Assembly: GCA_050331415.1 (NCBI GenBank)
Contig: JBHJGW010000106.1
Location: 1-47,840 of the forward strand
Source: Opitutales bacterium
Lineage (GTDB): Bacteria; Verrucomicrobiota; Verrucomicrobiia; Opitutales; Cerasicoccaceae
Direction of reading: 5' to 3'
Length of the DNA: 47,840 bases
The position numbers and the translations under genes were made by a program. Position 1 is the first letter of the stretch. Each line of letters opens with the position of its first letter. This document shows, one piece after another, positions 13,425 to 30,320 of the stretch. A model generated the notes under the pieces. The model was given only the letters and a program-made list of their open reading frames with translations, had not been told where the DNA came from and did not search any database.

Positions 13425-15092
13425 TTGCAAAACTCACCTGCACCAGAATCCACGACAGACTGGCAAGCGGCTTCGCGGGAAGCTCACGCAACGCTCGAAA
13501 ACTGGCTCGCCGACCGCGCCACGCGGCAGGCGGCGCAGCGCGAGCGTCTCCAAGAAGCCTTTTCGTTCGTCCAGCGTCTTCGCGAAGAGGGCGAACCGAC
13601 CGAGTTTACCCACAACCTTGACCAGCCGCCCGAACCCGAGCCGGCGAAAGCTCACGTCAAGGAAGTCGAGCCTTTCGATCCGCAGAAACTTGGCGACTAC
13701 CAGCGCCCCGGCACCGGTTTCCTTCGGGCGGCCGGTGACGCTTCGCCGGGGCTGTCAGCAGAGCAATTGGAGGGGCTCCGCGAGCGTCTTCAGCGGGCAC
13801 TGGACAATTTTGCCATCGACGCACTCGTGGCCGACGCTTCGGTGGGGCCGCGAGTTACGCAGTTTCGCGTCAAACCTGGCTACGGCACGAAAGTCGAGGC
13901 GATTGCCAACCTCGATAAAAACTTTGCGCTCGCATTGGCCTCCGGAGCCGTGCGGATTCAGGCGCCGATTCCTGGCGAGCCTTTCGTGGGCATCGAGGTA
14001 CCCAACCCCACCTCCCGACTGGTCGACCTGCGCGGCGTCTTCGAGGGTGTCGATTGGGCCAACACCGACGGTGACTTGCCTCTGGTGCTCGGCGTCGACA
14101 TTACCGGCCGTTGCCAATTTATCGATCTCGCCAAGGCGCCTCACTTGCTCATCGCTGGCGCGACGGGCTCAGGGAAGTCCGTGTGCATTAACAACCTGAT
14201 CCTTTCCCTGCTCTACCGCTTCCGGCCCGACGAGCTCGAGCTCGTGCTCGTGGATCCGAAAAAGGTCGAATTCGCGATGTACCAGAAGCTGCCGCACCTG
14301 ATCCATCCGGTCGTGGACAAGCCCTCGCAGGCTGTGCAGGCGCTGAAGTGGCTCGTGCGTGAAATGGAAACCCGCTACGAACTCCTGGCGGAAAAGCGCG
14401 TTCGCAATCTCGCCGGCTACAATTCTGCGTCCCGGCGCGACGGATTCGCCCCCCTGCCCTACATTGTCTTGATCGTCGATGAGCTTGCCGACCTGATGAT
14501 GACGTCAAAAGAAGATGTGGAAATGCCGATCGCCCGATTGGCGCAGATGTCGCGCGCGGTAGGCATCCACACGGTACTCGCGACGCAGCGCCCAAGCGTC
14601 AACGTCATCACCGGCGTCATCAAAGCCAACTACCCGGCGCGGGTGGCGTTCAAGGTTTCGAGTCAGGTCGACAGCCGCACCATTCTCGACGCCAAAGGTG
14701 CGGAATCCCTTCAGGGCAAGGGCGACATGCTTTACAACCCGCCGGGTCTTGGCGGCCTGGTGCGCCTGCAGAGCCCGTTTGTCGATGATGACGAAATCAA
14801 CGGCGTCACTGACTTCCTCCGTTCGCAGCTCGAGCCACGCTATCGCGTCGAACTCCACGACGAAGACGACGACGGAACCGGCAGCGCCGGGGCGAACGAG
14901 GACGACCCGCTTATCAAGCAGGCCATCGACGTCATCGCCACCAGCCAGCGCGCCAGCACGAGTTTTCTTCAGCGACGCCTCAAAATCGGTTACAACCGAG
15001 CGGCCAACCTCATCGAAGAACTCGAGAAACGGGGTTACCTTGGCCCGCAAATCGAAAACCAGCCGCGCGAGATTTTCATCCCGCAGCGGTAG
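13425..15092 (+). CDS. FtsK/SpoIIIE-family DNA translocase, soluble (SftA-like, no N-terminal transmembrane domain), TTG start
   Basis: Walker A LLIAGATGSGKSVCINNLI; Walker B LIVDELADLMM. Winged-helix gamma domain (DPLIKQAIDVIATSQRASTSFLQRRLKIGYNRAANLIEELEKRGYLGP). No ATG exists before the ATPase core. The ORF opens at a TTG at 13425. Confidence 0.85.
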   Translation: MQNSPAPESTTDWQAASREAHATLENWLADRATRQAAQRERLQEAFSFVQRLREEGEPTEFTHNLDQPPEPEPAKAHVKEVEPFDPQKLGDYQRPGTGFLRAAGDASPGLSAEQLEGLRERLQRALDNFAIDALVADASVGPRVTQFRVKPGYGTKVEAIANLDKNFALALASGAVRIQAPIPGEPFVGIEVPNPTSRLVDLRGVFEGVDWANTDGDLPLVLGVDITGRCQFIDLAKAPHLLIAGATGSGKSVCINNLILSLLYRFRPDELELVLVDPKKVEFAMYQKLPHLIHPVVDKPSQAVQALKWLVREMETRYELLAEKRVRNLAGYNSASRRDGFAPLPYIVLIVDELADLMMTSKEDVEMPIARLAQMSRAVGIHTVLATQRPSVNVITGVIKANYPARVAFKVSSQVDSRTILDAKGAESLQGKGDMLYNPPGLGGLVRLQSPFVDDDEINGVTDFLRSQLEPRYRVELHDEDDDGTGSAGANEDDPLIKQAIDVIATSQRASTSFLQRRLKIGYNRAANLIEELEKRGYLGPQIENQPREIFIPQR

Positions 15093-15152: not shown

Positions 15153-15626
15153 CTACAGTTGGCTCGTTGCGGAACCGCGGAGCGCATCGAAGTCGCCCCG
15201 CTCGCAGGCCGAAACGAAACCTTCGCAGAAGCCTTTGAGCGTCTCCCACCGCTGGCGGATCGAGGCGGCCTCGTCGTCGGTGATACGCTCGTCGATGCCC
15301 GCTTCGGCGACCTCTGAAATCAGGGTCGCGAACTGCTGAATCAACTCGTTGGTGGCGGGGCTCAGTTCGTAGCGCTTTCTGCCGGCTTCTGGGTTTTCCA
15401 AAAAAAAGCCGCCGCACCGATGGCAGAGCCACTTGATGACGGCGTGGTCCGGGCAGGCATCGTTGAGTTGCGCGGCGCGGTCGAGCGGATTTGGCGATCC
15501 GCTGCCAAAATCACCGGTGGGTTCAGCCCACTTGTATAAAAGCGATGAAGAAATCCCAATCTCCGCCGCGATTTCCTTTGGCGACTTATACGCGAAACAG
15601 GCACGGACGATCTCGTGGGAATCCAC
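15153..15626 (-). CDS. Hypothetical HTH-containing protein
   Basis: 157-aa ORF with HTH-like stretch SPKEIAAEIGISSSLLYKW. Divergent from the yqiJ-like gene. Not antisense to another coding region. Confidence 0.5.
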   Translation of the reverse strand: MDSHEIVRACFAYKSPKEIAAEIGISSSLLYKWAEPTGDFGSGSPNPLDRAAQLNDACPDHAVIKWLCHRCGGFFLENPEAGRKRYELSPATNELIQQFATLISEVAEAGIDERITDDEAASIRQRWETLKGFCEGFVSACERGDFDALRGSATSQL

Positions 15627-15700
15627 GGGTTTTTAGCCTGGGGAGCCGGAGCCGGAAAAGCAAGGCGGTTTGCAAATTCGTTACAAAGCTTGAGATCGAT

Positions 15701-15706
15701 TATAAT
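15701..15706 (+). promoter_or_regulatory. Candidate -10 element (TATAAT) with weak -35 (GTTACA at 15680-15685, 15-nt spacer) upstream of the NfeD-flotillin operon
   Basis: Perfect TATAAT hexamer in an AT-rich island, 48 bp upstream of the yqiJ-like start. Confidence 0.35.
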
Positions 15707-15754
15707 TTTCATGGTCCGGGTGATAGGGTAAAACGTTACGTGTTGCCTGAAGCC

Positions 15755-16426
15755 ATGCTCGAACTGCTGCAAGAGGCCGTTAAGCCCTACAACCTCCCTT
15801 GGACCATCCTGTTGGGGCTCGTCCTGCTCTACTGGCTGGTTCAGATCGTCACGGGCCTCGATTTCGAGGGTGATCTCAACTTCGAAGCCGAGGTTGACAT
15901 GGCCAATCCCGATGGCTTTCTCGACGGCCTGACGCGCTTCCTCCATGTGGGGCAAGTGCCGCTGATGTTCGTCATAGGGGCTTTGGCCCTCGTGGCGTGG
16001 ACCTTTTCGATCGTCGGAAATCTCTTTCTCAACCCCGACCAGGTAGTGTGGCTCGGTTGGCTGCTTGCGGTGCTGGCGCTTATTCCCGCCGTGCTGCTGG
16101 CGCGCTTGCTTCTGGCTCCCGTGGCCGCCTTTTACAAACAACTGGAAACCAAGGAAGCCGGCAACCGCTCGATGGTCGGGCAGACCTGCACGGTCATTAC
16201 CGAGCGCGTCGACGACGTCTACGGCCAGGGCGAGATTCACACCAAAGACGGCACCTTCACCGTCAGCATTCGCCCAGCTGAAAACTGCGAGCAGCTGGAA
16301 CGCGGTGACACGGCCCTGATTATTGACCGCTTTGACGACAAGCTCGTTTACGCGGTGCGGAAGGTTTCCTCGGACCAGCTCGCCATCGCCGACCATCGCT
16401 CGGCGCAGCCCGAATCTTCAGACTAG
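15755..16426 (+). CDS. yqiJ: NfeD/YqiJ-like membrane protein (membrane N-terminus, C-terminal OB-fold)
   Basis: Three TM helices, then a soluble beta-rich C-terminus (TCTVITERVDDVYGQGEIHTKDGTFTVSIRPAEN). Immediately upstream of an SPFH/flotillin gene, as in E. coli yqiJK. Confidence 0.7.
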   Translation: MLELLQEAVKPYNLPWTILLGLVLLYWLVQIVTGLDFEGDLNFEAEVDMANPDGFLDGLTRFLHVGQVPLMFVIGALALVAWTFSIVGNLFLNPDQVVWLGWLLAVLALIPAVLLARLLLAPVAAFYKQLETKEAGNRSMVGQTCTVITERVDDVYGQGEIHTKDGTFTVSIRPAENCEQLERGDTALIIDRFDDKLVYAVRKVSSDQLAIADHRSAQPESSD

Positions 16427-16511
16427 CGATCTGTGCCGGACCTGGGCCACTCTGCCCGCTCGACTTAGTTTTTCTTCTCAAACGTTTCTCAACGCTCAAT
16501 CGTCTCCGCAT

Positions 16512-18602
16512 ATGCACGCACTCGTTCTTGCACAAGCCGAAGCAGTGATCTTTGGCCTCTCATGGGTATGGCTCATCATTATCGGAACCGCTCTGTTTGC
16601 CTTGATCGGTTTTATCCTCAGCGTCTTTCACAAGGCGCAGCAGGGTTATGCCTTTGTGCGCACCGGCTTTGGCGGGACACGGGTTTTCCTGGCTGGCTGT
16701 ATCAGCATACCGGTCCTTCACCGGCTGGAAATCATGGACCTCCGGGTACAGACGCTGCAGCTCGACCGGCGTGGTAAGGACGGCCTCATCTGCAAAGACA
16801 ACGTACGGGCGGATATAACTGTCGGCTTTTATGTACGCGTCAACCCGACAGAGGAAAGCGTCCGCGAAGTCGCCCGCCGCGTGGGCTGCCAGCGTGCCTC
16901 GGACATCGACAAGTTGCGCGAACTCTTTGACGCGAAGTTCTCCGAGGCCCTCAAGACAGCGGGCAAGCAATTCGACTTCGAAGAGCTGTACACCAAGCGC
17001 CTCGAGTTCCGCGAAAAGATCAAGGAGGTCATCGAGAGCGATCTGGAGGCCTACGCCCTGACGGACGTCGCGATCGACTACCTCGAACAGACGGGCGTCG
17101 ATTCCCTCAACCCGAACAACATCCTGGACTCCGAGGGGATCAAGAAGATCACGGATCTGACGGCCAAGCAGATGATCCTCGAAAACGAGATCAACAACAA
17201 CCGCATCCGTACGATCAAGCAAAACGACGTGGAGCGCATCGAGGCAGTCCTCGAACTCGAAAAACAACAGGCCGAGGCGGAAGAAAAGCAGAAGCGCGAG
17301 ATCGCCGTCATCAGTGCACGCGAGGACGCCGAGTCCAAACGCGTGCAAGAAGAACAGCGCCAACGCGCCGAGCAGGCCCGCATCGCTGCCGAGGAGGAAA
17401 TTCAGATCGCCAACCAGAACATGGAGCGGCAGGTGATCGTCGCCGAGAAGAACAAGCAAAAGACCGAGGCGATTGAGACGGAACGGGTCGAGCGCGACCG
17501 CCAGCTCGAAATCGTGGAGCGCGACAAAGTCACCTCCCTCGCCGAAATCGAGAAGACCAAGGCCCTCGAAATCGAAAAGCGCAATATTCAGGACGTCATC
17601 AAGGAGCGCGTGATGGTCGAGAAGACCGTCGTGATTGAGCAGGAGAAGATCAAGGATACCGAGGCCTTCGCCACCGCCGACCGCCAGAAGCGCGTGACCC
17701 TGACCGCCGCCGAAGAAGAAGCCGAGGAAAAGAAGATCAAGCAGCTGAAGGCCGCCGAAGCCAGCAAAGAAGCCGAACAGATGAAGGCCGATGAGGACTT
17801 CTACCGGCAGACCCGCAAGGCCGAAGCCGGAAAGCGCGCCACCGAACTCGCCGCCGAAGAAATGGTTATCAGTGCCGAGGCGGAAGAAACCAGCTCGACC
17901 CGCACAGCCAACGCCAAGAAGACGCTCGCCGAAGCCACCGCCGCTGAAACCGCCGCCACCGGTTTGGGTGAGGCTCAAGTGATGGAAGCGAAAGCCGCCG
18001 CCAAACAGAAGGAAGGCGAGGCCGATGCCCATGTCATGGAACTGAAAGCCGCCGCCGACGCCAAGGGCATCCACCAGAAGGCCGAAGCGATGAAGCTCTT
18101 CAACGAAGCTGGCAAGGAACACGAAGAGTTCAAGCTGCGCCTCGAAAAGGAAAAGACCGTCGAGCTCGAAGCCATCCGCGTCAACGAGCAGATTGCCGAA
18201 TACCAGGCGAAGGTCCTCGGCGAGTCCCTCAAGAACACCAAGGTCGACATTGTGGGTGGCAGCGCGGACTTCTACAGCGAGATCGTTGGTGCCGTTACCC
18301 GCGGCAAGTCGTTCGAGCGCATGCTTGGGGCCAGCCCGGCCCTGGCCGACGTCAAGGAAACCTTCTTCAATGGCGATCCGGAGTACTTCAAGAGCCAGCT
18401 TTCGTCATGGCTGCGCGAATACGGGGTGAATGTCGACACGGTGAAAGACCTCTCCATCGCCGCCCTGCTGATGAAACTCGCCGGTCAGACTGACGACCCG
18501 GCGAAGCTGCAAAAGATTACAAGCCTGCAAGGCCTCGCCGAAAAATTTGGTCTCGCCATGCAACCGGTGGGCAAACTGCTGACGACTGCCGGAAAGAACT
18601 GA
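16512..18602 (+). CDS. yqiK: Flotillin-like SPFH/band-7 protein (YqiK family) with a very long E/K/A-rich coiled coil
   Basis: N-terminal TM helix (VWLIIIGTALFALIGFILSVF). SPFH domain (RTGFGGTRVFLAG...ICKDNVRADITVGFYVRVNP). About 450 aa of EA/KA-rich heptads. Start at ATG 16512. Confidence 0.9.
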   Translation: MHALVLAQAEAVIFGLSWVWLIIIGTALFALIGFILSVFHKAQQGYAFVRTGFGGTRVFLAGCISIPVLHRLEIMDLRVQTLQLDRRGKDGLICKDNVRADITVGFYVRVNPTEESVREVARRVGCQRASDIDKLRELFDAKFSEALKTAGKQFDFEELYTKRLEFREKIKEVIESDLEAYALTDVAIDYLEQTGVDSLNPNNILDSEGIKKITDLTAKQMILENEINNNRIRTIKQNDVERIEAVLELEKQQAEAEEKQKREIAVISAREDAESKRVQEEQRQRAEQARIAAEEEIQIANQNMERQVIVAEKNKQKTEAIETERVERDRQLEIVERDKVTSLAEIEKTKALEIEKRNIQDVIKERVMVEKTVVIEQEKIKDTEAFATADRQKRVTLTAAEEEAEEKKIKQLKAAEASKEAEQMKADEDFYRQTRKAEAGKRATELAAEEMVISAEAEETSSTRTANAKKTLAEATAAETAATGLGEAQVMEAKAAAKQKEGEADAHVMELKAAADAKGIHQKAEAMKLFNEAGKEHEEFKLRLEKEKTVELEAIRVNEQIAEYQAKVLGESLKNTKVDIVGGSADFYSEIVGAVTRGKSFERMLGASPALADVKETFFNGDPEYFKSQLSSWLREYGVNVDTVKDLSIAALLMKLAGQTDDPAKLQKITSLQGLAEKFGLAMQPVGKLLTTAGKN

Positions 18603-18613
18603 TGAGCTCACAC

Positions 18614-18645
18614 GCAGGCTGCTTCACGCTTATGAAGCAGCCCGC
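18614..18645 (+). terminator. Intergenic stem-loop (13-bp stem with 1 mismatch, 6-nt loop) between the flotillin and SHOCT genes; possible attenuator or partial terminator
   Basis: GCAGGCTGCTTCA-cgctta-TGAAGCAGCCCGC, 12 nt after the flotillin stop. No U-tract follows. Confidence 0.35.
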
Positions 18646-18662
18646 CCTGACCCAAGAGTCCC

Positions 18663-19067
18663 ATGCCTGATCTGACCACTGAACTCACGAAGCTCGCAGA
18701 GCTGCACAAAAACGGCGTGTTGACCAACGAAGAGTTTGCCCAGGCCAAGGCAAAGCTGCTCTCCGACGAACCTGACACTCCAGCTGACGCCGAAAGTGCT
18801 GCACGCAATATCCGACCGGAGTTAGCGCGCCCTCCGAGTCGTCACCATCGCCAATACCCGCATCCACCCGTGATCCATCACCAGATTGGGTTCAACGAAG
18901 ATCGCGAAAACTCCTTCGGTAAAGCCGCCAACCGCTTCGTCACGGTTAAGCTGATCCTGGGCATCCTCGGGTTCGTTCTCTTTGCCTGTTTTGCCGGACC
19001 CATCGCCTGTTCGATGCAAGATCGCATGAACTCCGGACCGTCCTTCCGCGGCCCTGGGTTTCCTTAA
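18663..19067 (+). CDS. SHOCT-domain membrane protein (N-terminal SHOCT, C-terminal TM helix)
   Basis: LTKLAELHKNGVLTNEEFAQAKAKLL matches the SHOCT consensus. Hydrophobic helix LILGILGFVLFACFAGPIA. 12 bp upstream of the giant ORF. Confidence 0.7.
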   Translation: MPDLTTELTKLAELHKNGVLTNEEFAQAKAKLLSDEPDTPADAESAARNIRPELARPPSRHHRQYPHPPVIHHQIGFNEDRENSFGKAANRFVTVKLILGILGFVLFACFAGPIACSMQDRMNSGPSFRGPGFP

Positions 19068-19078
19068 TTTCGCAACCC

Positions 19079-22000
19079 ATGACTCAGGGAAAATTAGAGG
19101 GGGGCGCCTATGAGGTCATTCGCAATCGCCTCAATCAGCAGGGGAAAGACTTGCTGGGGCGCCTGCAGGCACTCGATGCCAACCGCAAGGCAGTTTTTGG
19201 CGCGGTCGAGCCCCGGCTACTGACAACCGAGCGCATCCAGACTGCCAATAACTGTATTCCCCGCGGCATGACCGCCCTGCCCGGGGATCGCTTCATCTTC
19301 GGCTACAACGTCCACATTGGCCTCAAAAGCCAGGTCGAGGTCAGTGATGTTTTTTCCCTTTTCCAGTACCATCAGGACGAGCACCACTTCACGCAGGATG
19401 ATCTTTCATTTCTGACCTCCAGCCAGGAATTCGTCCAGGATTTCCAATATCTTTACAAATACTACAAAAAGACGACTTTCGCGAAGTTTATGCGGATGGG
19501 CCCGAACCTGTACATGGCCTTCCGCATCAGTGAGGACATTCGTGACATCAAAGTCTTCAAGTGGCTGCTCAAGGACGACGGGACATTCCAATACCTCGGC
19601 AACCGATTCGACCACGAGTACCAGTTTCCGGAGCAGCACGGCTTCAAGTGGACCCGTGCACACCGCGATATGCAACGCAGCGGTACCCACCCACACATCT
19701 CGATCGAAGACCGGCTTTTTGTGGAGACCGTTGGCGGCGACCTCACGATCAAGATTGAAGACAATACCGATTCTGGCGAAGGGATTTATAGCGAGCCGGT
19801 TAGCTATGCTGACCAGACCCTCGACGACGCCGATATCTACTACGCGGTCGTCGGCAGTCTAATTTTCCTGAAGATCAAGCCTTATCAGGAAAAGCAGACC
19901 CGCTATTTCATCTACAACGAAAAGGTGAAAGATGTGAAGCGCGTCGATTCCATCGAGCACAGCTGCGTCCTGCTTCCGGAAGAGCACGGCGTCATCTTCG
20001 CCGACGGCTTTTACCTGCACAACGGAGACTACAAGCGCTTCGACCCGCGCGAAGAGGCGATGCTCTATGAGCGCACCATCCGCGCGCCGAACGGCGAAGA
20101 CTATCTTTACGTCTTCTATCAGCGTGACCAGGGGGTGTATCAGCTGATGCCCTACAACCTGATCGCTCAGAAGGTCGAGAACCCCATCGAAGCAAATGGC
20201 TATGCACTCTTTGAAAATGGCTCCCTCGCGTACTTCAAAGCACACGACGAAGCCCAAAAGCACCACACCGTCCAAGTTTGGCAGACGCCATTCTCCGCAC
20301 GTGAGATACCAGTTGAAGGGCAGAAGGACAGCTACCTTTTTAAAGTCGGCAACTCGGACATCGTGCGCTGTATGGCCGAGTGCTATGAGATTTACAACCT
20401 GCTGCAACGTGAAGATGCCTACGAGGGCCTGTACCTCGACCTCACCCGCATCGCCACGCGGGTGATCGACAGCTACTTCTGGATCGAGAACGAGGCTGCC
20501 GCCAATCTCAAGGAAGTTCTGTCACAGATTTTGGGCACCGGCCAGGCGGCCATCGACGAGTTCGAAAAGGTCCAGCGCATCCGCAAGGCCACACTTGACC
20601 AGACTCGCCAAGTCCAAACTACCGCCCGCAAGCTCTTTACCGAACTCGACGGAACTCAGCCCGACGACGTTCGCGGCTACGTCGACCGCCTTGCGCGCTT
20701 GCGACGCCTCCGGGGGGAAGTCATTGGACTGAGGGAGCTGCGCTATGTCGACACGAGCCTTTGCGATGAGCTGGAAACGCAGATCGCCGAGCGCTCCGAC
20801 GGGGTCGCCCGGCATACGGTCGAGTTCCTCCTGCAGCCGGAGGCCCTGCAACCCTACCGAGACGCCATCGCTGCGCAGCGCGGCGAAATCGACAGCGCCA
20901 AGACCGCCCAGGAGGCAAAGCAAATTCTGGAGGAACTCGATCAGATCGGTGAGCAGCTCGAGATGCTCATCGAGACTATCTCGAACCTCAAAATCGAAGA
21001 TGCCACCCAGACCACGCGCATCATCGACAGCGTTTCCGAGCTTTTCACCGAACTCAATCAGCTCAAGGGCGCCGCCCGCAATAAGCGGCTCGACCTGATG
21101 CGGGCTGAGGGCGCGGCGCAGTTCCACGCCCAGTTGAAGCTGCTGGAGCAGTCGGTTGCCAACTATCTCGATATCGCCGACACTCCGGAGGCCGTCGACG
21201 AATACCTCACCAAAATGATGGTGCAGCTCGAAGAGCTCGAAGGCACTTACGCCGAGTTCGACGAGTTTATCGAAACCCTCTCGAACAAGCGGGCCGAACT
21301 GTACGACGCCTTCGAAACCAAGAAAGCCGCATTGATGGAAGCGCGGAACCGCCGCGCAACCAAGTTGGTTTCCTCCGCCGAGCGCATTTTAAAGGGCATC
21401 GAAAACCGCGCCCGTTCGATGACGGAGATTGCGGAGATCAACGGTTACTTCGCTGCCGACCTGATGGTCGATAAAACGCGCGACCTTGTCAGCCAGCTCA
21501 AGGAGATCGGAGAGGCGATCAAAGGCGATGATCTCCTGACGCGCCTCAAAACCATTCAGGGTGACGCCATCCGCCAGCTCAAAGATCGACAGGAGCTGTT
21601 CGTCGATGGCGAAAACGTCATTAAATTCGGCAAGCACCGCTTCACCGTCAACACGCAGCCATTGGAGCTGACGACTGTGTTGCGCGAGGGCGAGCTGTTC
21701 TATCACCTATCGGGAACGCAATTTTTCGAGCGCGTCGTCGACGACAGACTGGAGGCGACCCGCGAGGTCTGGGAAATGCAAAGCCCGGCCGAAAATGCGC
21801 AGGTGTATCGCGCCGAATTCCTCGCCTATCAAATGCTCAAGGCCCTCGAAGGCGGGCTCGAGCCGGGGCTGGCCGGTTTCGTGCAGCTCGATGGGGAAGC
21901 GCGCCTGGAGGCCGTCCGCCGTTTCATGGCTCCCCGCTATGCCGATGGGTATACCAAGGGCGTGCACGACGCCGATGCTGAGCGGCTGCTCACCGCGCTG

Positions 22001-25000
22001 GCCAAGATCCATCAGTCCGTCGGCCTCTTGCGCTATTCCCCCGACGCACGCGCCTGCGCCCTCGCCTTTTGGGTCAGCAGTTCCGGAGACAACGGCCTAG
22101 CTGCGCACCTGCGCGAACGCCTCGAAGCCTTTGGCGCGATGCTGCGGGCGTATCCAGAACACAAGACGCAGCGTGTCTACATCAACGAACTGCGCTCCGC
22201 TATCACACGTTTCAATGACGCGCACGGGCTCTTCCCCAACAACCTAGCGAACGAAGCCGCCGAATACCTTTTCTATGAGATCGTCGAGGACGAGCATTTT
22301 TACATCACCCGCGAGAGCGCCAAACTTGCCGACGACTTCAAACACGAGCTTCTCGAACGCCGCTTTCTGGAAAAATTTGATGCCGCTCGGGAGCGGGTGA
22401 AGGGTGACGCCGTCAGCGAATTTCGCATCATCCGCGATTGGCTCGAGGGCCACGCCGCCCACCACAAGCTTCCCCAGGAGCAGCACGAGTTTATTGCCGA
22501 AGCTGCGGCGCACATCCTTCGCGGCGGCGTCGAGCGGCGGCGGATCATCGATGTTCCGATCCAGGTCGACCTCGAAGACTTGCGCGGCGACCACGACAAC
22601 ATCGCCGAAGGCGGCAAGTACCACATGAACTACCTGCACTTTATGGACCGCCTTCGCGCCTTCGAGGCCGGTCCGTTTACGCTTTACCACCAGTTTCAAG
22701 AGCGTAAGCAGGAACTTGTTGAGCAGTTCGCCGAAGAGCTGCGCCTCGGAGAGTTCAAACCGCGCGTGCTCAGTGCATTTGTGCGCAACAAGCTTCTGGA
22801 CACCGTCTATCTGCCGCTGATTGGCGACAACCTCGCCAAGCAGATTGGTGCCGCCGGAGCAGATGCCCGCACCGACCGCATGGGCTTGCTGCTACTGATT
22901 TCGCCGCCAGGCTACGGAAAGACGACGCTAATGGAGTACGTGGCCAATCGCCTCGGCATAACCTTCATGAATGTCAACGGCCCCTCGCTCGGGCACGACG
23001 TCACCTCGCTGGACCCCGGCCAGTGCGCCAACATGGCAGCGCGGCAGGAAGTCGAGAAGATCAACCTCGCTTTCGAGATGGGCGATAACGTGCTCATCTA
23101 CCTCGACGATATCCAGCATACCAACCCGGAGCTGCTCCAGAAGTTTATTTCACTGTGTGACGGCACGCGTCGCATCGAGGGAGTCTACAAAGGCAAGTCC
23201 AAGACCTACGACCTGCGCGGGCGCAAGGTGGCTGTCGTCATGGCGGGTAACCCCTACACGGAAACCGGCGGCAAGTTCCAGATCCCGGATATGCTCGCCA
23301 ACCGCGCCGATACCTACAACCTCGGCGACATTATCGGCGAGAATTCAGACGCCTTCGAGGCCAGCTACATCGAAAACTCGCTCACCTCCAACAGCGTCCT
23401 GTCACGCCTATCGAGCCGTTCCCGCAAGGACGTTTATGCGATCATGCAGATCGCGCGAACGGGCCAGCGAGAGGGCGTCGAATTCGATTCGTCTTTCTCG
23501 ATGGAAGAAGTCAACGAAATGGTCAGCGTCATGAAAAAGCTGATGCGCGTTCGGGACACCATCCTTCGGGTCAACCTGATGTATGTGCGCAGCGCCGCCC
23601 AGGCCGACGACTATCGCACCGAGCCGCCCTTCAAGCTCCAGGGCTCCTACCGCAATATGAACCGGCTCGCCGAGAAGGTGCTGCCGATCATGACCGACCG
23701 GGAAATCGAACAGCTCATTGATGACCATTATGCTGGTGAGTCGCAGACCCTGACTGACGGCGCCGAAGCCAACTTGCTGAAGTTCAAGGAACTCGAAGGC
23801 AAACTGACGCCTGACGAGACCGAACGGTGGGAAGAAATCAAAAAGCGCTTCAAGCGGCAAAAGGCGCTCGGAGGCGCGGGTGATACCGACCCCGTCAACC
23901 GCGTTGTTGCGCAACTCGCCGACTTCAATAATGGCCTTGCCGAACTTGGCGATACCCTAAATGAGGGCACCAAAACTTACGGGGCCACCATGGCAGAAGC
24001 CCTTGCTGGCTTACGCGAGGCGCTTATGGAGGGCTCCCGGAGCCAGCAGCATACCTTGGCCGAAGCACTCGATTCCCTCAGCGGTTCCCTGATGGCCGGC
24101 TCGCAGCGGACGGGCGAAAGCCTCGCCGGGCTTGTCGAAAGCCTGCGCGAAACGATGGCGGCCGAAGCCGCGCGAGGGCGCGAAGGTCAGGCCGAACTGT
24201 CCGCCCGACTCGACGTCATCGCCGAGCGATGGCTGCAACATTCCACAGAAACCGCTTCCGCCCAAAACCTCGCCAGCGAGCGTAACCTTTCGGCTATTAC
24301 GCCGATCCTCTCGCAAATGGCAGAAGGGCTTGCGGCCACCAGCCAGGCACATCGCGAATCGTCGGTACAGACCGCCGAGGCGATTACGCCCCTGCTCAAC
24401 CGCTTGGTCGACAAGCTCGATGCCGCAAGCGATGCCCAGCGCGAAGCGGCGGCGCAAACGGTCGAAGCGCTGGTCCCTTTACTCGGGCGCGTTGCCGACA
24501 ACCTTTCGACGTCGAGCGAGGCACAGCGAGAGGGCGCGCAAGCAAGTGCGGAACGCGCAGGAAAGTTTCTTAGTACGATCGCCGATTCCATTCGCGAAGG
24601 CCAGCTCGCTGCAGCCGAGCAGACCAGCGGCGTCCTGGGAATGATGACACCGCTCCTCGGCAACATCTCAAACCAGCTCGCCCGCATTGCGGAAACCGGA
24701 GCCGCAGGGGGCCGGCAGTCAGAGACCATGGAGCAAATTCTGGCAACCCTTGCACGCGCCGAAACCGAGCAAACGAAAGCGGTTCAAGCTTGGGCGGAAG
24801 ACATGGCCCAGCGCGACAGCGCTCCAGAAGCCCGAACGGCTCCCCTTCCCATGCCGGCGCAGGAAGCCACAGCAGCCCACGCAAGTGGTGGCGCATTGAA
24901 GCTCGACACTCGCACTGAAGCTCTACTGCAGAGCATCCTGATCGCCTTCCACCACCTGTTTCGCAAAACGGGGATCGAGCGACCGCAAGTTTTTACCAGC

Positions 25001-25015
25001 GACGAAACGGAATAG
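19079..25015 (+). CDS. Giant multidomain protein (1978 aa): N-terminal beta-rich domain, extended coiled coils, central AAA+ ATPase (AAA_5/MoxR/dynein-like), C-terminal ~29-aa tandem repeats and an acidic tail
   Basis: Single uninterrupted ORF of 5937 nt. Walker A LLLISPPGYGKTTL (22901-22927). Walker B VLIYLDDIQH (23090-23119). Sensor-1 VVMAGNPY. Antisense ORFs inside are low-complexity. Confidence 0.85.
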   Translation: MTQGKLEGGAYEVIRNRLNQQGKDLLGRLQALDANRKAVFGAVEPRLLTTERIQTANNCIPRGMTALPGDRFIFGYNVHIGLKSQVEVSDVFSLFQYHQDEHHFTQDDLSFLTSSQEFVQDFQYLYKYYKKTTFAKFMRMGPNLYMAFRISEDIRDIKVFKWLLKDDGTFQYLGNRFDHEYQFPEQHGFKWTRAHRDMQRSGTHPHISIEDRLFVETVGGDLTIKIEDNTDSGEGIYSEPVSYADQTLDDADIYYAVVGSLIFLKIKPYQEKQTRYFIYNEKVKDVKRVDSIEHSCVLLPEEHGVIFADGFYLHNGDYKRFDPREEAMLYERTIRAPNGEDYLYVFYQRDQGVYQLMPYNLIAQKVENPIEANGYALFENGSLAYFKAHDEAQKHHTVQVWQTPFSAREIPVEGQKDSYLFKVGNSDIVRCMAECYEIYNLLQREDAYEGLYLDLTRIATRVIDSYFWIENEAAANLKEVLSQILGTGQAAIDEFEKVQRIRKATLDQTRQVQTTARKLFTELDGTQPDDVRGYVDRLARLRRLRGEVIGLRELRYVDTSLCDELETQIAERSDGVARHTVEFLLQPEALQPYRDAIAAQRGEIDSAKTAQEAKQILEELDQIGEQLEMLIETISNLKIEDATQTTRIIDSVSELFTELNQLKGAARNKRLDLMRAEGAAQFHAQLKLLEQSVANYLDIADTPEAVDEYLTKMMVQLEELEGTYAEFDEFIETLSNKRAELYDAFETKKAALMEARNRRATKLVSSAERILKGIENRARSMTEIAEINGYFAADLMVDKTRDLVSQLKEIGEAIKGDDLLTRLKTIQGDAIRQLKDRQELFVDGENVIKFGKHRFTVNTQPLELTTVLREGELFYHLSGTQFFERVVDDRLEATREVWEMQSPAENAQVYRAEFLAYQMLKALEGGLEPGLAGFVQLDGEARLEAVRRFMAPRYADGYTKGVHDADAERLLTALAKIHQSVGLLRYSPDARACALAFWVSSSGDNGLAAHLRERLEAFGAMLRAYPEHKTQRVYINELRSAITRFNDAHGLFPNNLANEAAEYLFYEIVEDEHFYITRESAKLADDFKHELLERRFLEKFDAARERVKGDAVSEFRIIRDWLEGHAAHHKLPQEQHEFIAEAAAHILRGGVERRRIIDVPIQVDLEDLRGDHDNIAEGGKYHMNYLHFMDRLRAFEAGPFTLYHQFQERKQELVEQFAEELRLGEFKPRVLSAFVRNKLLDTVYLPLIGDNLAKQIGAAGADARTDRMGLLLLISPPGYGKTTLMEYVANRLGITFMNVNGPSLGHDVTSLDPGQCANMAARQEVEKINLAFEMGDNVLIYLDDIQHTNPELLQKFISLCDGTRRIEGVYKGKSKTYDLRGRKVAVVMAGNPYTETGGKFQIPDMLANRADTYNLGDIIGENSDAFEASYIENSLTSNSVLSRLSSRSRKDVYAIMQIARTGQREGVEFDSSFSMEEVNEMVSVMKKLMRVRDTILRVNLMYVRSAAQADDYRTEPPFKLQGSYRNMNRLAEKVLPIMTDREIEQLIDDHYAGESQTLTDGAEANLLKFKELEGKLTPDETERWEEIKKRFKRQKALGGAGDTDPVNRVVAQLADFNNGLAELGDTLNEGTKTYGATMAEALAGLREALMEGSRSQQHTLAEALDSLSGSLMAGSQRTGESLAGLVESLRETMAAEAARGREGQAELSARLDVIAERWLQHSTETASAQNLASERNLSAITPILSQMAEGLAATSQAHRESSVQTAEAITPLLNRLVDKLDAASDAQREAAAQTVEALVPLLGRVADNLSTSSEAQREGAQASAERAGKFLSTIADSIREGQLAAAEQTSGVLGMMTPLLGNISNQLARIAETGAAGGRQSETMEQILATLARAETEQTKAVQAWAEDMAQRDSAPEARTAPLPMPAQEATAAHASGGALKLDTRTEALLQSILIAFHHLFRKTGIERPQVFTSDETE

Positions 25016-25103: not shown

Positions 25104-25664
25104 CTATTCGCTTTTGCGGTAAATGCCGGACGCATTGACGACCAGGTTCTCCGGAGTCGAAATCGTGTCAACAGTTCCGGTTACTACGACGTGGTCGAGT
25201 TCCTGAAGGCCGCCAACTCCGCGCAGCGACCCTTGCAGTGGCAACCCTTCGGCGTCGACGAGCTGCACGCTGGCACGGCCCTTAGTGACCTTCTCCGGAT
25301 CCTCGCAACAGGCGTCCCAAGGCGTTGCGCAATGGTCATCGTCGCCCATCTCGTTGCAGAACATAATGCTTTCATCCGCCAGGACCAGGGTGGCGAAGTT
25401 TTCACCGAAGGGATTCATCGTTGCGCCGATTTGCCCTGACACGACGATGAGCTCGCCGGGTTCGGCGCTGGCGCGCGCAGCTTCCACATTGACTGCGCCC
25501 TCGGGCTCGCTTTCCAGCAGGTACATGCTGACCGGGCTTTCCGAAGTCTCGGGGGAGACGTCGCTGGCGGTCCCTTTCGAAGCTGCATTATCGCCGCAAC
25601 CCGCAAGAAATACGGCCAGCGCCGAGACAGCAGCCGTGGTGGTTTGATGGATACATTTATTCAT
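25104..25664 (-). CDS. Cys-rich lipoprotein (186 aa), last gene of the ABC exporter operon
   Basis: Lipobox LAGC after a signal peptide. Cys/His cluster CNEMGDDDHCATPWDACCEDPE. Confidence 0.65.
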   Translation of the reverse strand: MNKCIHQTTTAAVSALAVFLAGCGDNAASKGTASDVSPETSESPVSMYLLESEPEGAVNVEAARASAEPGELIVVSGQIGATMNPFGENFATLVLADESIMFCNEMGDDDHCATPWDACCEDPEKVTKGRASVQLVDAEGLPLQGSLRGVGGLQELDHVVVTGTVDTISTPENLVVNASGIYRKSE

Positions 25665-25704
25665 AACAGGCTATTGTTTTGAGACATTTTGGGGAGGTAA
25701 AAGT

Positions 25705-26856
25705 TCAGGCAGAGCGCAGCGCAACCGGCAGTGGCGCCCGCAAGCATCGCAGAGCGGGAGGAATGGCACCGATGACGCCGAGCCCAAAACCGGTTACCAG
25801 GCCTAGGGTGATCGTATCCGGCGTCAGCAACAGGCGAAAAGTTCCCATGGAGAAATTGACGGTCGTGCCTTCGAGCAAGAACACCGCGAGTGAGGCGGCA
25901 GCCAGCGTGCCCGCCAGCGTTGCCAGCAGACTCTCCTGCAGCAGAGAAAGAAAAATCGCGCCGCGCGAGAAACCCACGGCCTGCAGCGTAGCGATTTCGC
26001 GGATACGGGAAGCAAACGCCGCGTAAAGCAGATTCATGCCGCCGAAGGCCGCGCCAATTCCGACAAGGATCGCGGTCAGCCATGTCATTCCGCGAATCGG
26101 GCCGTAGAAATGCGCCAGCTTTGCGTAGTAATCGGACTCCCGCAGCGCAACGAGCTCGAGGTCGAGCCGCTGACTGGCAAACAGCTCGGCATGCGCAAAT
26201 CCCGATTCGTCTCCCATTCGAAGGACAACTGCGGACAAATTTTCGCGCTGCGTCAGGGTCATCAGGTCGCTGCGCGTGAACCAGACTTCAGACTCCATGA
26301 CAGTGCCAGGGGCGTCGAACACACCCGCGACGGTTAGCGTCTGACCTTCGAAGGCAAGCTCGCTGCCCGGAGTCAAAGCGGAGGCTGGTCTGCCCAGCGA
26401 GCGGTGCGCAAGCCGTCCGACAAGCACCTCGCCCGGGCCGGGATACCCGCCCTCGATAATGCGCACCTCGCGGTGCACTTCGAACGCCGCGGGCGTTACG
26501 CCCCGCAACAGTGCTTGAGAATCGCTGTCGTCGGGAAAGGTCAACGCGCCCATGTATTGAATTTCTCCTGACACCGCGGGCACCCCGGCCCGGCGCTCGA
26601 TACCCCGAATCCCCGCAGTGGCCAGGGTCTCGGTCTGCACAGGGATCTCGCTGCGCTCGACACTCTCCTCGGAGCCTGCCCCTAGGAGGATGACGTTTCG
26701 CGGTGAGCCGGTGGCCTGCAACACGCGCTCCATGCCGTCATTGAACGCCGAAGCAGCAAAGACGAGAAAGACCACCAGAGCGGCACCACCGATCTTTTGG
26801 ATCAGCTGCCCCGGCGCTCGAACCAGGTTGCGAGTTGCGTAGGAAAACGGCAGCAT
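25705..26856 (-). CDS. ABC transporter permease, FtsX/MacB-like
   Basis: FtsX-type topology with a large periplasmic loop. C-terminal helices LATLQAVGFSRGAIFLSLLQE. Confidence 0.8.
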   Translation of the reverse strand: MLPFSYATRNLVRAPGQLIQKIGGAALVVFLVFAASAFNDGMERVLQATGSPRNVILLGAGSEESVERSEIPVQTETLATAGIRGIERRAGVPAVSGEIQYMGALTFPDDSDSQALLRGVTPAAFEVHREVRIIEGGYPGPGEVLVGRLAHRSLGRPASALTPGSELAFEGQTLTVAGVFDAPGTVMESEVWFTRSDLMTLTQRENLSAVVLRMGDESGFAHAELFASQRLDLELVALRESDYYAKLAHFYGPIRGMTWLTAILVGIGAAFGGMNLLYAAFASRIREIATLQAVGFSRGAIFLSLLQESLLATLAGTLAAASLAVFLLEGTTVNFSMGTFRLLLTPDTITLGLVTGFGLGVIGAIPPALRCLRAPLPVALRSA

Positions 26857-26860
26857 GACA

Positions 26861-28015
26861 CTAAGCCCCGCGCAGGGAGCTAACAATGGGTTTGCGGGCG
26901 GCGATCAGGGCGGGCCAGATGGAGGCGACGACCCCCAGTGCAAGCGCCACCAGCAAGCCGTAGGCGACAACCGTCCAGCTTGGCGAGAGCGCTAGCGTCA
27001 GGCCTTCGTTGCCCAAGGTGAAGCGCTTGAGGTGGAAGAAAAGCCCGGCGGAAAGACAGCCGATCAGGCCGCCGGCGAGACCGAGCAGCGCGCCTTCCAA
27101 AATCATCAACCAGCCGATGGACCAGCGGGAAAAACCGATTGTCTGGTAAACCGCGCTTTCTTTGATCCGCGAGCGCGCCGCCAGCAGGAGCGCGTTGGCG
27201 ACCAGCCCCAGCACCGCAAGTACCGCCCCGAGCCCGAGCCAACGGGTGAAGCCGACCAGCTCGATCATTTCACTCGCAGTCTGGGCGAAGAAGGCCTTCT
27301 CGGGGCGGGTGTTTGTCGGAGCCTGATCTGCGGCGAAAAGGTCATCTATGCGCTCGGCCACGGGTTCGAGATCGTCAGGGCTCTCCACTCGAACATTGAA
27401 CTGCGTGACGACCCCGAGACCGACGCGGGAGGCCTGCTGCAGAAACGGAAGGTGCACGTATGCGACATTGTTGTCCTGGGGATTTGGCGACGTAATGATC
27501 CCCGCAACCCACACCCTGACGCCGACAGCCTCAAATTGATCGCCCGGCTCCAAACCCCGCCGCTGCGCAAAATGCTTACCGACGAGCGCCGCATCGCTGC
27601 GGGATTGCCATGACTCGTAAGAGCCTGTCACTACTTCAAGCTCGGGGTTGTACGAGCGAAGGGCGCCAGTTGGGACGCCCCGGAAGGTGATGACGTCAAG
27701 GCTCGCCCCGCAGTTGTTCACCGTGATCTGAATCGGCAGTGCCTCGACGACGCCGTCGATCCGCTCGATCTCACCGAGGTAGTGCTCCGGCAGCCGTGAG
27801 GTCATCGGGCAAAATCGGTTTTCGCGGTAAACGACCAGGGTGTTGTCCTGCGCGCTTGTCTCGGTGACCGTTTTCAGGGACCGCTGCATCGTTTCCACCG
27901 AGGCATAAAGGAACATGCCGACGGCAACGCCGATCACGGTCAGGAGGCTGCGGACGCGGTGCCGCGTCAACTGCTTGAGGGCCAAGCCACCGAGGTGTGC
28001 AAATGGTCGCATCAT
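26861..28015 (-). CDS. ABC transporter permease, FtsX/MacB-like (second copy)
   Basis: Paralogue of the adjacent permease (AVYQTIGFSRWSIGWLMILE). 4-bp overlap with the ATPase gene. Confidence 0.8.
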   Translation of the reverse strand: MMRPFAHLGGLALKQLTRHRVRSLLTVIGVAVGMFLYASVETMQRSLKTVTETSAQDNTLVVYRENRFCPMTSRLPEHYLGEIERIDGVVEALPIQITVNNCGASLDVITFRGVPTGALRSYNPELEVVTGSYESWQSRSDAALVGKHFAQRRGLEPGDQFEAVGVRVWVAGIITSPNPQDNNVAYVHLPFLQQASRVGLGVVTQFNVRVESPDDLEPVAERIDDLFAADQAPTNTRPEKAFFAQTASEMIELVGFTRWLGLGAVLAVLGLVANALLLAARSRIKESAVYQTIGFSRWSIGWLMILEGALLGLAGGLIGCLSAGLFFHLKRFTLGNEGLTLALSPSWTVVAYGLLVALALGVVASIWPALIAARKPIVSSLRGA

Positions 28016-28722
28016 GCCACGACCTCCTCTTTGGTGCCGCTCTCGACCAGTTGTCCCTTTTCGAGGTGCAGGGTCCGGGCAGCGGCCGACGCGGCAAGTG
28101 CGTCGTGAGTCACCATGACGATCGTTTTGCCGTAATCCGTAGCCAAGGCCTTGAGGAGGTTCAAAATCGCCGTACCGGACTCCCGGTCGAGGTCGCCGGT
28201 CGGCTCGTCAGCAACCAGCAACCCAGGGTTGGCAACGATCGCCCGCGCAATCGCCACACGCTGCTCCTGGCCACCAGAAAGCTCGGTCGGCCGGTGCTCG
28301 GAGCGGTCCGCGAGACCGACAAGCTCGAGGGCCTCCGTCACGCGCCGACGGCGTTCGCGACGGGTTAGAGATTTGTCCAGCAGGAGCGGCAGCTCCACAT
28401 TCTCGAAGGCCGTCAGAATCGGCACAAGGTGGTACAGCTGGAAGATGTAGCCGCAGTGCCGGGAACGCCAGCGAGTCAGTTCCGCCCGCGACAGCCTGGC
28501 GAGGTCGTGCCCGTCCACGTGTAGCTCACCGGCGGTAGGTTGGTCGATGCCCGCGATCAAGTTGAGCAGCGTGGTCTTGCCCGAACCCGAGGGGCCCATC
28601 AGCGCAAGGAATTCGCCGCGGGGGACATCGAGATCGAGCTGTTCGAGGGGCGTAACGGTCGTGCGCCCTTTTTGATAGGATTTGGTCAGTCCGCGGCAGC
28701 GGATAAAGCTTTCGGTTTCCAT
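28012..28722 (-). CDS. ABC transporter ATP-binding protein (MacB/LolD-type)
   Basis: Walker [13 protein letters not shown]. Signature [14 protein letters not shown]. Walker [14 protein letters not shown]-loop VMVTHD. Confidence 0.9.
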
Positions 28723-28740
28723 TCCGGTTGCAGCAGAAGT

Positions 28741-30198
28741 TCAGGTCTCCGGCATCGAGCGAGCTTCGACACGCTCGCCGCTTTCCAGGCCGGCAGGTGG
28801 GTTTACGACGACTCGCTCGCCGGGCTTCAGCCCTTCGGCAACCCGCGTATAGCCTTCCCGAGACTCGGGGGCCAAGGTGATCGCCTTTCGGCGAACGCGC
28901 TCGCCGTCCTGGCCGATTACCCAAACCTCGGCGGACGTACCGGAGCGGCCCAGGAGCGCACTTTCAGGGACGTACAGGCGCACCCGGGTCATCGCCGCGG
29001 GACGCTCCGCTGCGCGGTCGCCGCCACCCGCGGCCAGGAATTCCGCTCGGCAGAGCATCTCCGGGCGCAGACGGTCGTCGGGGTCGAGCAGCTCGACCTT
29101 GGCCTGCAGGGTGTTGCGCTGCAGGTCGGCCTCGCCGGTGATACGGGTTACGCGACCCTGCAGCTCGACGTCGGGAAGAAAATTGGTTCGCAGCCTTACG
29201 GCCTGCCCGAGCCGCAACTGCGCAGCCTCGGCCAGCGGCACATCGATCCGGGCTTGCAGGCTCTCCGGGTCATAAAGATAGGCAATGGCTGCGGAATCGT
29301 GATTGTCCGGACCTAACATGCGCTGCTGGCCAGGTAAGGCGAAAAGCCGCATTACGCGACCCTCAATCGGCGAGGTGATCCGGTGCCGCCGGAGAGCAAG
29401 CTCCCGACGTGCCACCTCGGTTTCCGCGAGGGCGACCCCCGCCTCCGCTTCAGCATAGCGGCTCTGGAGCTGCTGAATCTGGGCCTCCGTCTCCGCCACC
29501 TCCGACTGCAACGCAGCAACCTCGGCCTCCTGGGTGACAGCGGCCTGACGGCTCTGGTCGATATCAATCTGTGGAACGGCCTCGCGCCCTGCCCCTGCGA
29601 GGCGGTCGGCGGCGTCGCGCCGGTAATCGCGCATTGCCGATGCCCCTCGAATCCGTTCGGCAAGGGTCGTCAGTTTAGCGCGCGCAGCGGCAACGGCCGC
29701 CTCGTTGGCATTGACCGTCGCCCTCGCTGCCTGAAGTGATGCGCGGGCTGTCTGGAGATCCAGCCGGGCGTCGTCGTCGATCAGGGTCGCCAGAACCACG
29801 CCTTTTTCAACGGTTTCGCCTTCGAGGACAAAAACCTCGTCGACGACACCGGAAACCAGTGTCGAGACCTTGGTCGGCAGGGGGTCGGGTTCGATCCACC
29901 CGGTTGCCTGAAATAAAACCGGGGCCTGGAAAGGGTCGGAAGCGCCGACCGAGGCGCCTTCCCGCAGATCGATAGGCTCGGCGCCCGGGTCCTCGGGCAA
30001 GGTGACTACATTGGCTATCTGGACCGGCCGCGCAGGGAGCAGGCGCTCGCCAAACAGCAGCGCCATGAGCAAGGTAAAGCCAAGGATCAGGCCTACCGGG
30101 ATACTGAGGGAAAGTAATCGTCCGCGGTTGCGTTGCGGCGGAGGACTACCGGAAGGGCCAGGGTTGCCCAGAAGGGAATTCAACTGTTCTGAAGCCAT
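28741..30198 (-). CDS. HlyD-family membrane fusion protein (periplasmic adaptor)
   Basis: N-terminal TM anchor, long coiled-coil hairpin (AALQSEVAETEAQIQQLQSRYAEAEAGVALAE), beta-barrel C-terminus. First gene of the exporter operon. Confidence 0.8.
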   Translation of the reverse strand: MASEQLNSLLGNPGPSGSPPPQRNRGRLLSLSIPVGLILGFTLLMALLFGERLLPARPVQIANVVTLPEDPGAEPIDLREGASVGASDPFQAPVLFQATGWIEPDPLPTKVSTLVSGVVDEVFVLEGETVEKGVVLATLIDDDARLDLQTARASLQAARATVNANEAAVAAARAKLTTLAERIRGASAMRDYRRDAADRLAGAGREAVPQIDIDQSRQAAVTQEAEVAALQSEVAETEAQIQQLQSRYAEAEAGVALAETEVARRELALRRHRITSPIEGRVMRLFALPGQQRMLGPDNHDSAAIAYLYDPESLQARIDVPLAEAAQLRLGQAVRLRTNFLPDVELQGRVTRITGEADLQRNTLQAKVELLDPDDRLRPEMLCRAEFLAAGGGDRAAERPAAMTRVRLYVPESALLGRSGTSAEVWVIGQDGERVRRKAITLAPESREGYTRVAEGLKPGERVVVNPPAGLESGERVEARSMPET

Positions 30199-30320
30199 GC
30201 ACAATTCAAGCTAGATGGTCGGGAATCCATGTAACGGTCGCACTGCGACAGTACACGGGAACGGCCGCGAAACGCCGCGACCTCATGAGGCCTCACACGC
30301 GAGGCCGTCAAACCACCAGC

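Follow-up and report, generated by a model that had tools for sequence, protein, structure and literature searches.

We analyzed a stretch of 47,840 nucleotides from an Opitutales bacterium of the phylum Verrucomicrobiota (assembly GCA_050331415.1, contig JBHJGW010000106.1, positions 1 to 47,840 of the forward strand; hereafter, the window), with a focus on an operon in which a flotillin gene is followed by the gene of a giant AAA+ ATPase. Open reading frame (ORF) listing and translation placed 4 genes at 15755-25015, all on the plus strand and separated by spacers of 85, 60, and 11 nt, which encode a YqiJ/NfeD-like protein, a flotillin, a SHOCT-domain protein with a transmembrane (TM) helix, and the ATPase (Table 1). 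An initial annotation of this DNA had described 4 co-directional genes with short gaps of 12 to 85 bp; this layout was borne out, and the domains called in the giant protein were largely right, apart from the extent of the coiled coil (see below). As detailed below, the YqiJ-like, flotillin, and ATPase genes constitute a widespread 3-gene co-directional module.

Table 1. Coordinates of the operon genes, of the main parts of the giant ATPase, and of the divergent regulatory region in the window.
Feature	Coordinates	Strand	Description
YqiJ/YuaF-type short NfeD-like inner-membrane protein	15755..16426	+	223 aa, 3 TM and C-terminal soluble domain
YqiK-type flotillin	16512..18602	+	696 aa; TM, SPFH/Band-7, E/A/K-rich coiled-coil region, conserved C-terminal region
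SHOCT-domain protein with C-terminal TM	18663..19067	+	134 aa
Giant soluble ATPase, database name "DNA repair ATPase"	19079..25015	+	1978 aa
DUF3686 domain, aa 24-467	19148..20479	+	N-terminal helix, then beta-propeller-like beta-rich domain
DUF7902, aa 588-670	20840..21088	+	Inside helical, coiled-coil-like linker aa ~470-840; PF25472 E = 1.1e-24
AAA+ module, aa ~1238-1460	22790..23458	+	Walker A/B, sensor-1, Arg finger, hairpin
Variable A/L/E/S/T-rich C-terminal tail, aa 1620-1978	23936..25012	+	Few ~29-aa "TPLL" repeats; lineage-specific extension
Phage_CP76 (CII-like) regulator	15153..15626	-	157 aa; Pfam PF06892 E = 8.9e-8, 32.6 bits (cut-off 26)
Conserved promoter-/operator-like element	15681..15706	+	TTACAAA, 13-14 nt, ATTATAAT

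The linkage was quantified by scanning one genome per GTDB species, which yielded 567 confirmed relatives of the ATPase; in 80 loci, flanked by up to 10 kb, all ORFs were translated and searched with the window proteins and ortholog profiles, and counts refer to the 60 loci whose upstream sequence reaches 3.6 kb or more. In 57 of the 60 loci, the ATPase gene is immediately preceded by the flotillin gene in the same orientation, and in 54 of them both the YqiJ-like and the flotillin genes are directly upstream in this orientation, the other 3 having flotillin only. Conservation of the neighborhood had been set in advance as the check on which the proposal of the initial annotation would stand or fall, and the linkage of the NfeD-SPFH pair to the giant ATPase is clearly recurrent. 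The flotillins found beside the ATPase score with E-values of 1e-160 to 1e-220 and, therefore, represent one orthologous subfamily. Unsupervised clustering of the flanking ORFs identified the YqiJ-like, SPFH, and ATPase genes as the only 3 conserved across the set. The linkage spans at least 10 phyla and was found in Verrucomicrobiota, Planctomycetota, Bacteroidota, Desulfobacterota, Acidobacteriota, Clostridia, Kiritimatiellota, and Omnitrophota; the trio is also present in Sulfidibacter (Acidobacteriota), Coraliomargarita, and Puniceicoccaceae, as well as in Proteus mirabilis, on the Pseudomonas fluorescens megaplasmid pQBR103, and on a Streptomyces linear plasmid. Within Opitutales, the module occupies a stable chromosomal position next to ribosomal-protein genes.

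The YqiJ-like ORF spans 15491-16426, and its start is likely the ATG at 15755, which yields a protein of the same length as the Coraliomargarita ortholog. The protein has 3 predicted TM helices and matches the Pfam model YqiJ_N with E = 0.0019, under the gathering score; the same model matches 14 of 27 orthologs, and comparison of the ortholog profile with Escherichia coli YqiJ using hhalign gave a probability of 97.2% (E = 4e-11). The flotillin, which likely starts at 16512 and has a predicted N-terminal TM helix, shares 31% identity with E. coli YqiK across 420 amino acids (aa) (E = 4e-50). Its full-length sequence had no match in Pfam or NCBIfam, probably because of the low-complexity middle region; these 300 residues are 50% E/A/K and account for a spike in AT skew at 17-18 kb. 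A scan restricted to the N-terminal 253 aa detected Band_7 with E = 1.5e-15, and 30/30 orthologs match this domain, whereas the Pfam "Flot" model matched neither the full-length protein nor its N-terminal part. Precomputed Pfam fields are empty for orthologs of the linked flotillin, an annotation pitfall; since these proteins go unmatched at full length, domain-based neighborhood screens will miss this flotillin subfamily. The C-terminal ~130 aa are conserved among the ATPase-linked flotillins (SPFH_C matches in 70 loci). Sequence searches against PDB with the flotillin N-domain, the YqiJ-like protein, and ortholog profiles of both found nothing.

The giant ATPase has no predicted TM segment, whereas the YqiJ-like protein and the flotillin both do. 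Pfam recognizes DUF3686 (E = 2e-179), DUF7902, and, at aa 1271-1363, AAA. More than 4680 relatives were retrieved with E < 1e-10, the best 120 of which are all at least 49% identical to the window protein, and in a 12-sequence cross-phylum alignment, ~1600 residues are conserved, proteins of different phyla being 45-55% identical over 1600 aa, and a variable tail follows. DUF3686 is restricted to 694 of 1.84 billion clusters at 50% identity, and its full-length carriers are all about 1550-2040 aa long; all carriers being giant, the domain is confined to this protein architecture. In structure comparisons, the DUF3686 N-domain has a propeller-like fold with a modest Z-score; beta-propellers are typical protein-binding modules. 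The linker at aa 470-840 is L/E/A/R-rich and, judging from its composition, appears to be coiled-coil in character. In an AlphaFold2 (AF2) model of aa 831-1640 (mean confidence, pLDDT, 83.1), a small beta domain at aa 847-885 and a globular, all-alpha one at aa 911-1148 are followed by a hairpin and a long helix, then by the AAA+ alpha/beta domain, whose sensor-1 strand is preceded by a hairpin at aa 1365-1378, and finally by a helical C-terminal part. The claim of about 800 aa of coiled coil was, thus, an overstatement: aa 470-1230 are mostly helical but include beta and globular all-alpha domains.

Conservation stops near aa 1620. Most homologs are 1650-1750 aa long and end about 250-300 residues before the window ATPase, whose tail (aa 1620-1978) is A/L/E-rich and not conserved in homologs. 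Repeats of ~29 aa occur at aa 1765-1828, where a motif search revealed 2 clear copies; Tandem Repeats Finder detected no tandem repeat in the DNA of the tail, and no off-diagonal match appeared when the tail was compared with itself by BLASTP.

The single AAA+ module carries a Walker A motif (SPPGYGKTT, aa 1275-1283), a Walker B motif (YLDDIQH, with D1343 and D1344), the sensor-1 residue N1391, and the arginine finger R1409. Walker A, Walker B (LDDIQH), N1391, and R1409 are invariant in the aligned homologs, which argues for an active enzyme, and the giant ATPase probably is one. The second Asp of the Walker B motif (codons at 23105-23110) stands in place of the usual catalytic Glu and is invariant in 42 homologs from many phyla; LDDIQH presumably resembles the DnaA-type "DDIQ" Walker B. 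Structure comparison confirmed the AAA+ fold of the module, which appears nearest to the MoxR/dynein/midasin remodelers, with the MoxR enzymes CbbQ and NorQ as the closest relatives. A profile search of PDB with the whole ATPase family matched only ~37 residues around the P-loop and, therefore, does not assign an AAA+ clade. Neither a MIT domain nor a classical-clade AAA fold as the best match, the features of a Vps4-type enzyme, was found in the giant ATPase, and Pfam searches revealed neither a peptidase domain nor an effector domain (nuclease, protease, or NADase) in it.

The window protein is annotated in the database as a "DNA repair ATPase" (Opitutales metagenome-assembled genome [MAG] protein), implying that it acts on DNA and that the flotillin linkage is incidental or reflects membrane-tethered DNA processing. 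The Pfam description of DUF3686 and the NCBI product name point this way, as do weak RuvB_N matches, the divergent LexA-like HTH-S24 regulator of the Bacteroidota operons, and the FtsK gene upstream in the window. However, the likeness to RuvB is limited to ~50 residues around the P-loop, and searches of Pfam and NCBIfam found no DNA-binding, nuclease, or helicase domain in the giant ATPase; furthermore, the invariant neighbors are membrane-scaffold proteins rather than repair genes, FtsK is not a conserved neighbor, and no paper supporting the name was found in the literature collection searched. We consider a role in DNA repair extremely improbable, and the database label is unfounded and misleading. 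Searches of the same collection for DUF3686, PF12458, DUF7902, and IPR020958 retrieved no paper.

The SHOCT gene, which the initial annotation had regarded as a component of the system, is a recently inserted, lineage-specific passenger outside the conserved module. In its product, the SHOCT domain (E = 4.9e-9) is N-terminal and the sole TM helix, at aa 92-110, C-terminal. The gene is missing in the 3 closest relatives (loci L085, L086, and L001; 81%, 70%, and 69% identity, respectively), where the flotillin and ATPase genes are separated by 106, 97, and 93 nt with no gene between them, and DNA alignment reveals it as a clean insertion into this spacer. No counterpart was found with phmmer in 84 loci, and the window SHOCT is the sole one among 29 ORFs located at this junction. 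The flotillin|ATPase junction (18603-19078 in the window) behaves as an insertion hotspot: in 26 other loci, the spacer is at least 250 nt and up to 2361 nt long, and the ORFs contained therein are mutually unrelated, encoding PDDEXK_3, DUF559, an IS200-like transposase, a biotin-lipoyl-like protein, DUF3592, AbiEii with DUF6922, ParE, DMP19, and lipoproteins. Insertion-bearing junctions include those of loci L010, L014, L015, L019, L023, L024, L032, L036, L042, L043, L048, L063, L072, L076, and L077.

Upstream of the operon, the window contains an FAA hydrolase gene, an FtsK gene, and, divergently oriented, the gene of the CII-like protein. Orthologs of the latter (CP76-like) are divergent from and adjacent to the module in 4 other verrucomicrobial loci (L001, L008, L009, and L086), and this position makes the CP76-like protein a candidate transcriptional regulator of the operon in Verrucomicrobiota. 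The gene is conserved divergently beside the module in both Opitutales and Verrucomicrobiales, and the counterpart position in Bacteroidota is taken by a divergent HTH-S24 (LexA-like) regulator, both being regulators of the phage-repressor type. The intergenic region between the CP76-like and yqiJ-like genes contains 2 blocks, TTACAAA and ATTATAAT/ATTGTAAT, 13-14 nt apart, which are invariant in an alignment of 5 verrucomicrobial loci; elsewhere, the element lies at ~7090-7125 in L001 and ~5085-5120 in L086 and is also found in L008 and L009. The initial annotation had proposed a candidate promoter with TATAAT at 15701. This hexamer is present at 15701-15706, inside the conserved element, but a scan for the sigma-70 consensus called no promoter there because the spacer is too short. 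TTACAA and TTGTAA within the element are reverse complements of each other. A search of the region between the divergent genes yielded no inverted repeats of 8 nt or longer, and terminator-like matches were at chance level. Based on its sequence, the element may serve as a promoter and/or an operator for the CII-like protein.

The FtsK-like ORF (13425-15092, plus strand, 555 aa) contains the alpha, motor, and gamma domains. Convergent with the operon, the region 25104-30204 on the minus strand encodes a 186-aa protein with no Pfam match and then a MacAB-like efflux set of 2 FtsX/MacB permeases, an ABC ATPase, and a HlyD-type adaptor. In the clustering of flanking ORFs, none of the FAA hydrolase, FtsK, CII-like, 186-aa, and MacAB-like genes emerged as a cross-phylum conserved neighbor.

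SPFH proteins, SHOCT proteins, and large ATPases occur in some defense contexts, and the initial annotation had listed a conflict system among its options. Under such a scenario, the flotillin/YqiJ pair would sense membrane perturbation by a phage, and the ATPase would act as the effector or switch. The gathering of AbiEii, ParE, PDDEXK_3, and DUF559 at the SPFH|ATPase junction of other loci and the phage-type CII-like regulator adjoining the module are compatible with this scenario. Nevertheless, PADLOC-DB v2 returned for the ATPase only a weak ZorA coiled-coil match (E = 5e-5, in the variable tail) and an IetA P-loop match (E = 0.003), and the other 3 operon proteins had no match in it; the giant ATPase was not found in 50,697 phage records and lacks a detectable nuclease, protease, or NADase domain. 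Its extreme conservation across phyla, with few clusters at 50% identity, is unlike that of fast-evolving defense genes, and the Opitutales module sits stably beside ribosomal-protein genes. The conflict option is, thus, unsupported, and we regard an antiphage function as highly unlikely.

In some phyla, the module is tied to PspA. A 250-aa PspA/IM30 homolog is encoded in 17 Bacteroidota loci, in 16 of which its gene immediately precedes that of the YqiJ-like protein in the same orientation; a 130-aa CesT-like protein is encoded beside PspA in 15 loci, and a divergent HTH-S24 gene is located further upstream, also in 15. In P. fluorescens SBW25, plasmid pQBR103 (locus L089, 84437-97641) carries a 10-gene single-strand cluster with both PspA and the giant ATPase, in the order YjfI, PspA, rhomboid, DUF2491, DUF350, DUF1190, glutathionylspermidine-synthase-like protein, YqiJ-like protein, SPFH, and ATPase; a literature search on pQBR103 with PspA/SPFH returned nothing specific. 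That PspA shares an operon with the module in 16 loci from Bacteroidota and on pQBR103 supports the suggestion of the initial annotation that the module is linked to PspA and envelope-stress biology. In a Puniceicoccaceae locus (L086, 16629-20198), 3.5 kb downstream, the strand opposite to the module carries a PspA_IM30 gene, which is separated from a secretin gene by one unannotated gene. Secretins are known inducers of PspA.

The claim that such an arrangement is not part of any described flotillin operon was wrong. Ravi et al. 2024 (mSystems, PMC11237479) already reported, within the phage-shock (PspA) neighborhood, an operon type combining YqiJ/YuaF, Band-7/flotillin, and a propeller/coiled-coil/AAA+ protein, its combination with a CesT/Tir-PspA dyad, and an "abbreviated" form devoid of PspA. 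Their operon has the same 3 core genes as the window, in the same order, on the same strand, and with the same domain architectures, and their comparative genomics independently reaches the same reading, with a general hint at a scaffold-ATPase role (PMC11237479). The Bacteroidota loci described here match the full form, including the divergent HTH-protease regulator, and the supplementary-table context of the exemplar in that paper (Dokdonia donghaensis, ANH61663.1; PMC11237479) is identical to theirs. Compared with the full form, the window operon is without the CesT/Tir-PspA dyad, so that it fits the published "abbreviated" form, and has the additional SHOCT-TM gene between flotillin and ATPase; it further differs from the published operon by a CII-like instead of HTH-S24 divergent regulator and an unusually long, repeat-bearing tail of the ATPase. 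The pQBR103 cluster unites the 2 PspA operon classes described in that study (PMC11237479).

SPFH proteins form closed membrane-attached cages (PMC13086221, PMC12624060, PMC13220708, PMC13000311). The QmcA cage is formed jointly with the NfeD partner YbbJ (PMC13086221), and the HflK/C cage works with the AAA+ protease FtsH, a precedent for SPFH-AAA+ coupling (PMC13220708). PspA is a polymer-forming member of the ESCRT-III superfamily, for which, according to a 2025 review, a Vps4-like regulator is apparently lacking in bacteria (PMC7619361). With this background, the best explanation for the module, to which we assign a probability of about 0.6, is ATP-driven assembly, disassembly, or remodeling of flotillin/PspA scaffolds in envelope stress. 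We infer the oligomeric state, physical interactions, substrate, and stress role of the ATPase as follows. By analogy with QmcA-YbbJ, HflK/C, and flotillin-1/2, YqiJ and flotillin would assemble at the cytoplasmic face into an SPFH cage or microdomain that is anchored in the membrane. The soluble ATPase would oligomerize via its single AAA+ module and contact the YqiJ/flotillin scaffold through the long helical arm and the beta-propeller. The energy of ATP would go into building, dismantling, or reshaping polymers of flotillin, of PspA (ESCRT-III-like), or of both when the envelope is under stress or the membrane is being repaired. A more specific version, in which the DUF3686 ATPase is the missing energy source, a MoxR/dynein-like hexamer whose propeller-tipped arms would seize flotillin cages and/or PspA polymers to take them apart or reshape them, as a nonhomologous counterpart of Vps4, is put forward tentatively, as a possibility somewhat short of even odds.

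Several observations weigh against scaffold remodeling. The tblastn search detected no PspA-like ORF in the window, and the link to PspA is, accordingly, indirect here; no experimental study of any module member was found in the literature. With Walker B reading DD rather than DE in every member, ATP may be hydrolyzed at an atypical rate. The sequence of the giant ATPase shows no obvious canonical aromatic pore loop, which leaves a mechanism by threading or unfolding uncertain. In 3 of the 60 loci, neither partner was found within the 10-kb flank; these loci (L022, L031, and L052) come from Desulfobacteraceae, Cytophagaceae, and Bacteroidia MAGs and could reflect either real uncoupling or MAG misassembly. 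Finally, MoxR-type ATPases usually work with VWA partners, and clustering of the flanking ORFs yielded no VWA-domain gene conserved near the module.

The AAA+ core also invites a different reading, whereby the ATPase is a MoxR-like maturation chaperone that mediates cofactor insertion or maturation of a membrane complex corralled by the flotillin cage, instead of remodeling the scaffold. Parallels exist in HflK/C, which organizes FtsH substrates, and in FloA, which stabilizes unfolded clients. CbbQ and NorQ appear to be the nearest structural relatives of the AAA+ module, the HflK/C-FtsH pair shows that an SPFH cage can work together with an AAA+ protein (PMC13220708), and flotillin-NfeD is reported to stabilize unfolded membrane proteins, as PMC11222466 is summarized in PMC13086221. 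Yet neither a VWA partner nor a candidate client gene is conserved nearby, the giant propeller/coiled-coil arm is without a MoxR counterpart, and the operon link is to PspA, a polymer-forming remodeler. On balance, we consider the chaperone role unlikely and retain scaffold remodeling as the preferred interpretation.

The module bears on how flotillin cages and PspA/ESCRT-III-like polymers are assembled and disassembled in bacteria. It is the most obvious candidate for an ATP-driven scaffold remodeler, because a flotillin is paired with a very large and extremely conserved, probably active AAA+ protein in at least 10 phyla, and with PspA in some of them. A role as a Vps4 counterpart has already been hinted at in general terms (PMC11237479), so that the novelty would lie in experimental proof, and the window itself is one more example of a described kind rather than anything categorically new. 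New here are the quantified linkage (57/60), the passenger status of the SHOCT gene, the probable structural placement of the AAA+ module near MoxR/dynein rather than Vps4, the correction of the "DNA repair" label, and the candidate regulatory element. Tractable carriers of the module include Proteus mirabilis, P. fluorescens SBW25 with pQBR103, and isolates of Hymenobacter, Leeuwenhoekiella, and Tenacibaculum; pQBR103 is a well-studied megaplasmid and a possible experimental entry point.

Among known systems, E. coli yqiJ-yqiK and Bacillus subtilis yuaF-floT encode homologs of the YqiJ-type and YqiK-type proteins, arranged as in the window. Unlike in the window, no ATPase gene follows E. coli yqiJ-yqiK, and the window flotillin is 143 aa longer than YqiK, to which its conserved C-terminal region is not alignable. 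HflK/C-FtsH, where an SPFH scaffold of the inner membrane is functionally coupled with an AAA+ enzyme (PMC13220708), is comparable to the module, but FtsH is a membrane-anchored classical-clade AAA protease, whereas the window ATPase is soluble, MoxR/dynein-like, and devoid of a protease domain; a proteolytic analog of HflK/C-FtsH was rejected on the latter ground. The likeness to the Vps4/ESCRT-III pair of archaea and eukaryotes consists in a candidate ATPase being encoded together with the ESCRT-III-superfamily protein PspA in some phyla. The MoxR enzymes (CbbQ, NorQ, and RavA) and dynein/midasin appear to be the best structural matches to the window AAA+ module, which has a hairpin before sensor 1. 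Unlike MoxR and dynein units, the window ATPase has ~1230 residues of propeller and helical domains ahead of the AAA+ module and a Walker B DD, and, unlike typical MoxR systems, its module comes with no conserved VWA partner.

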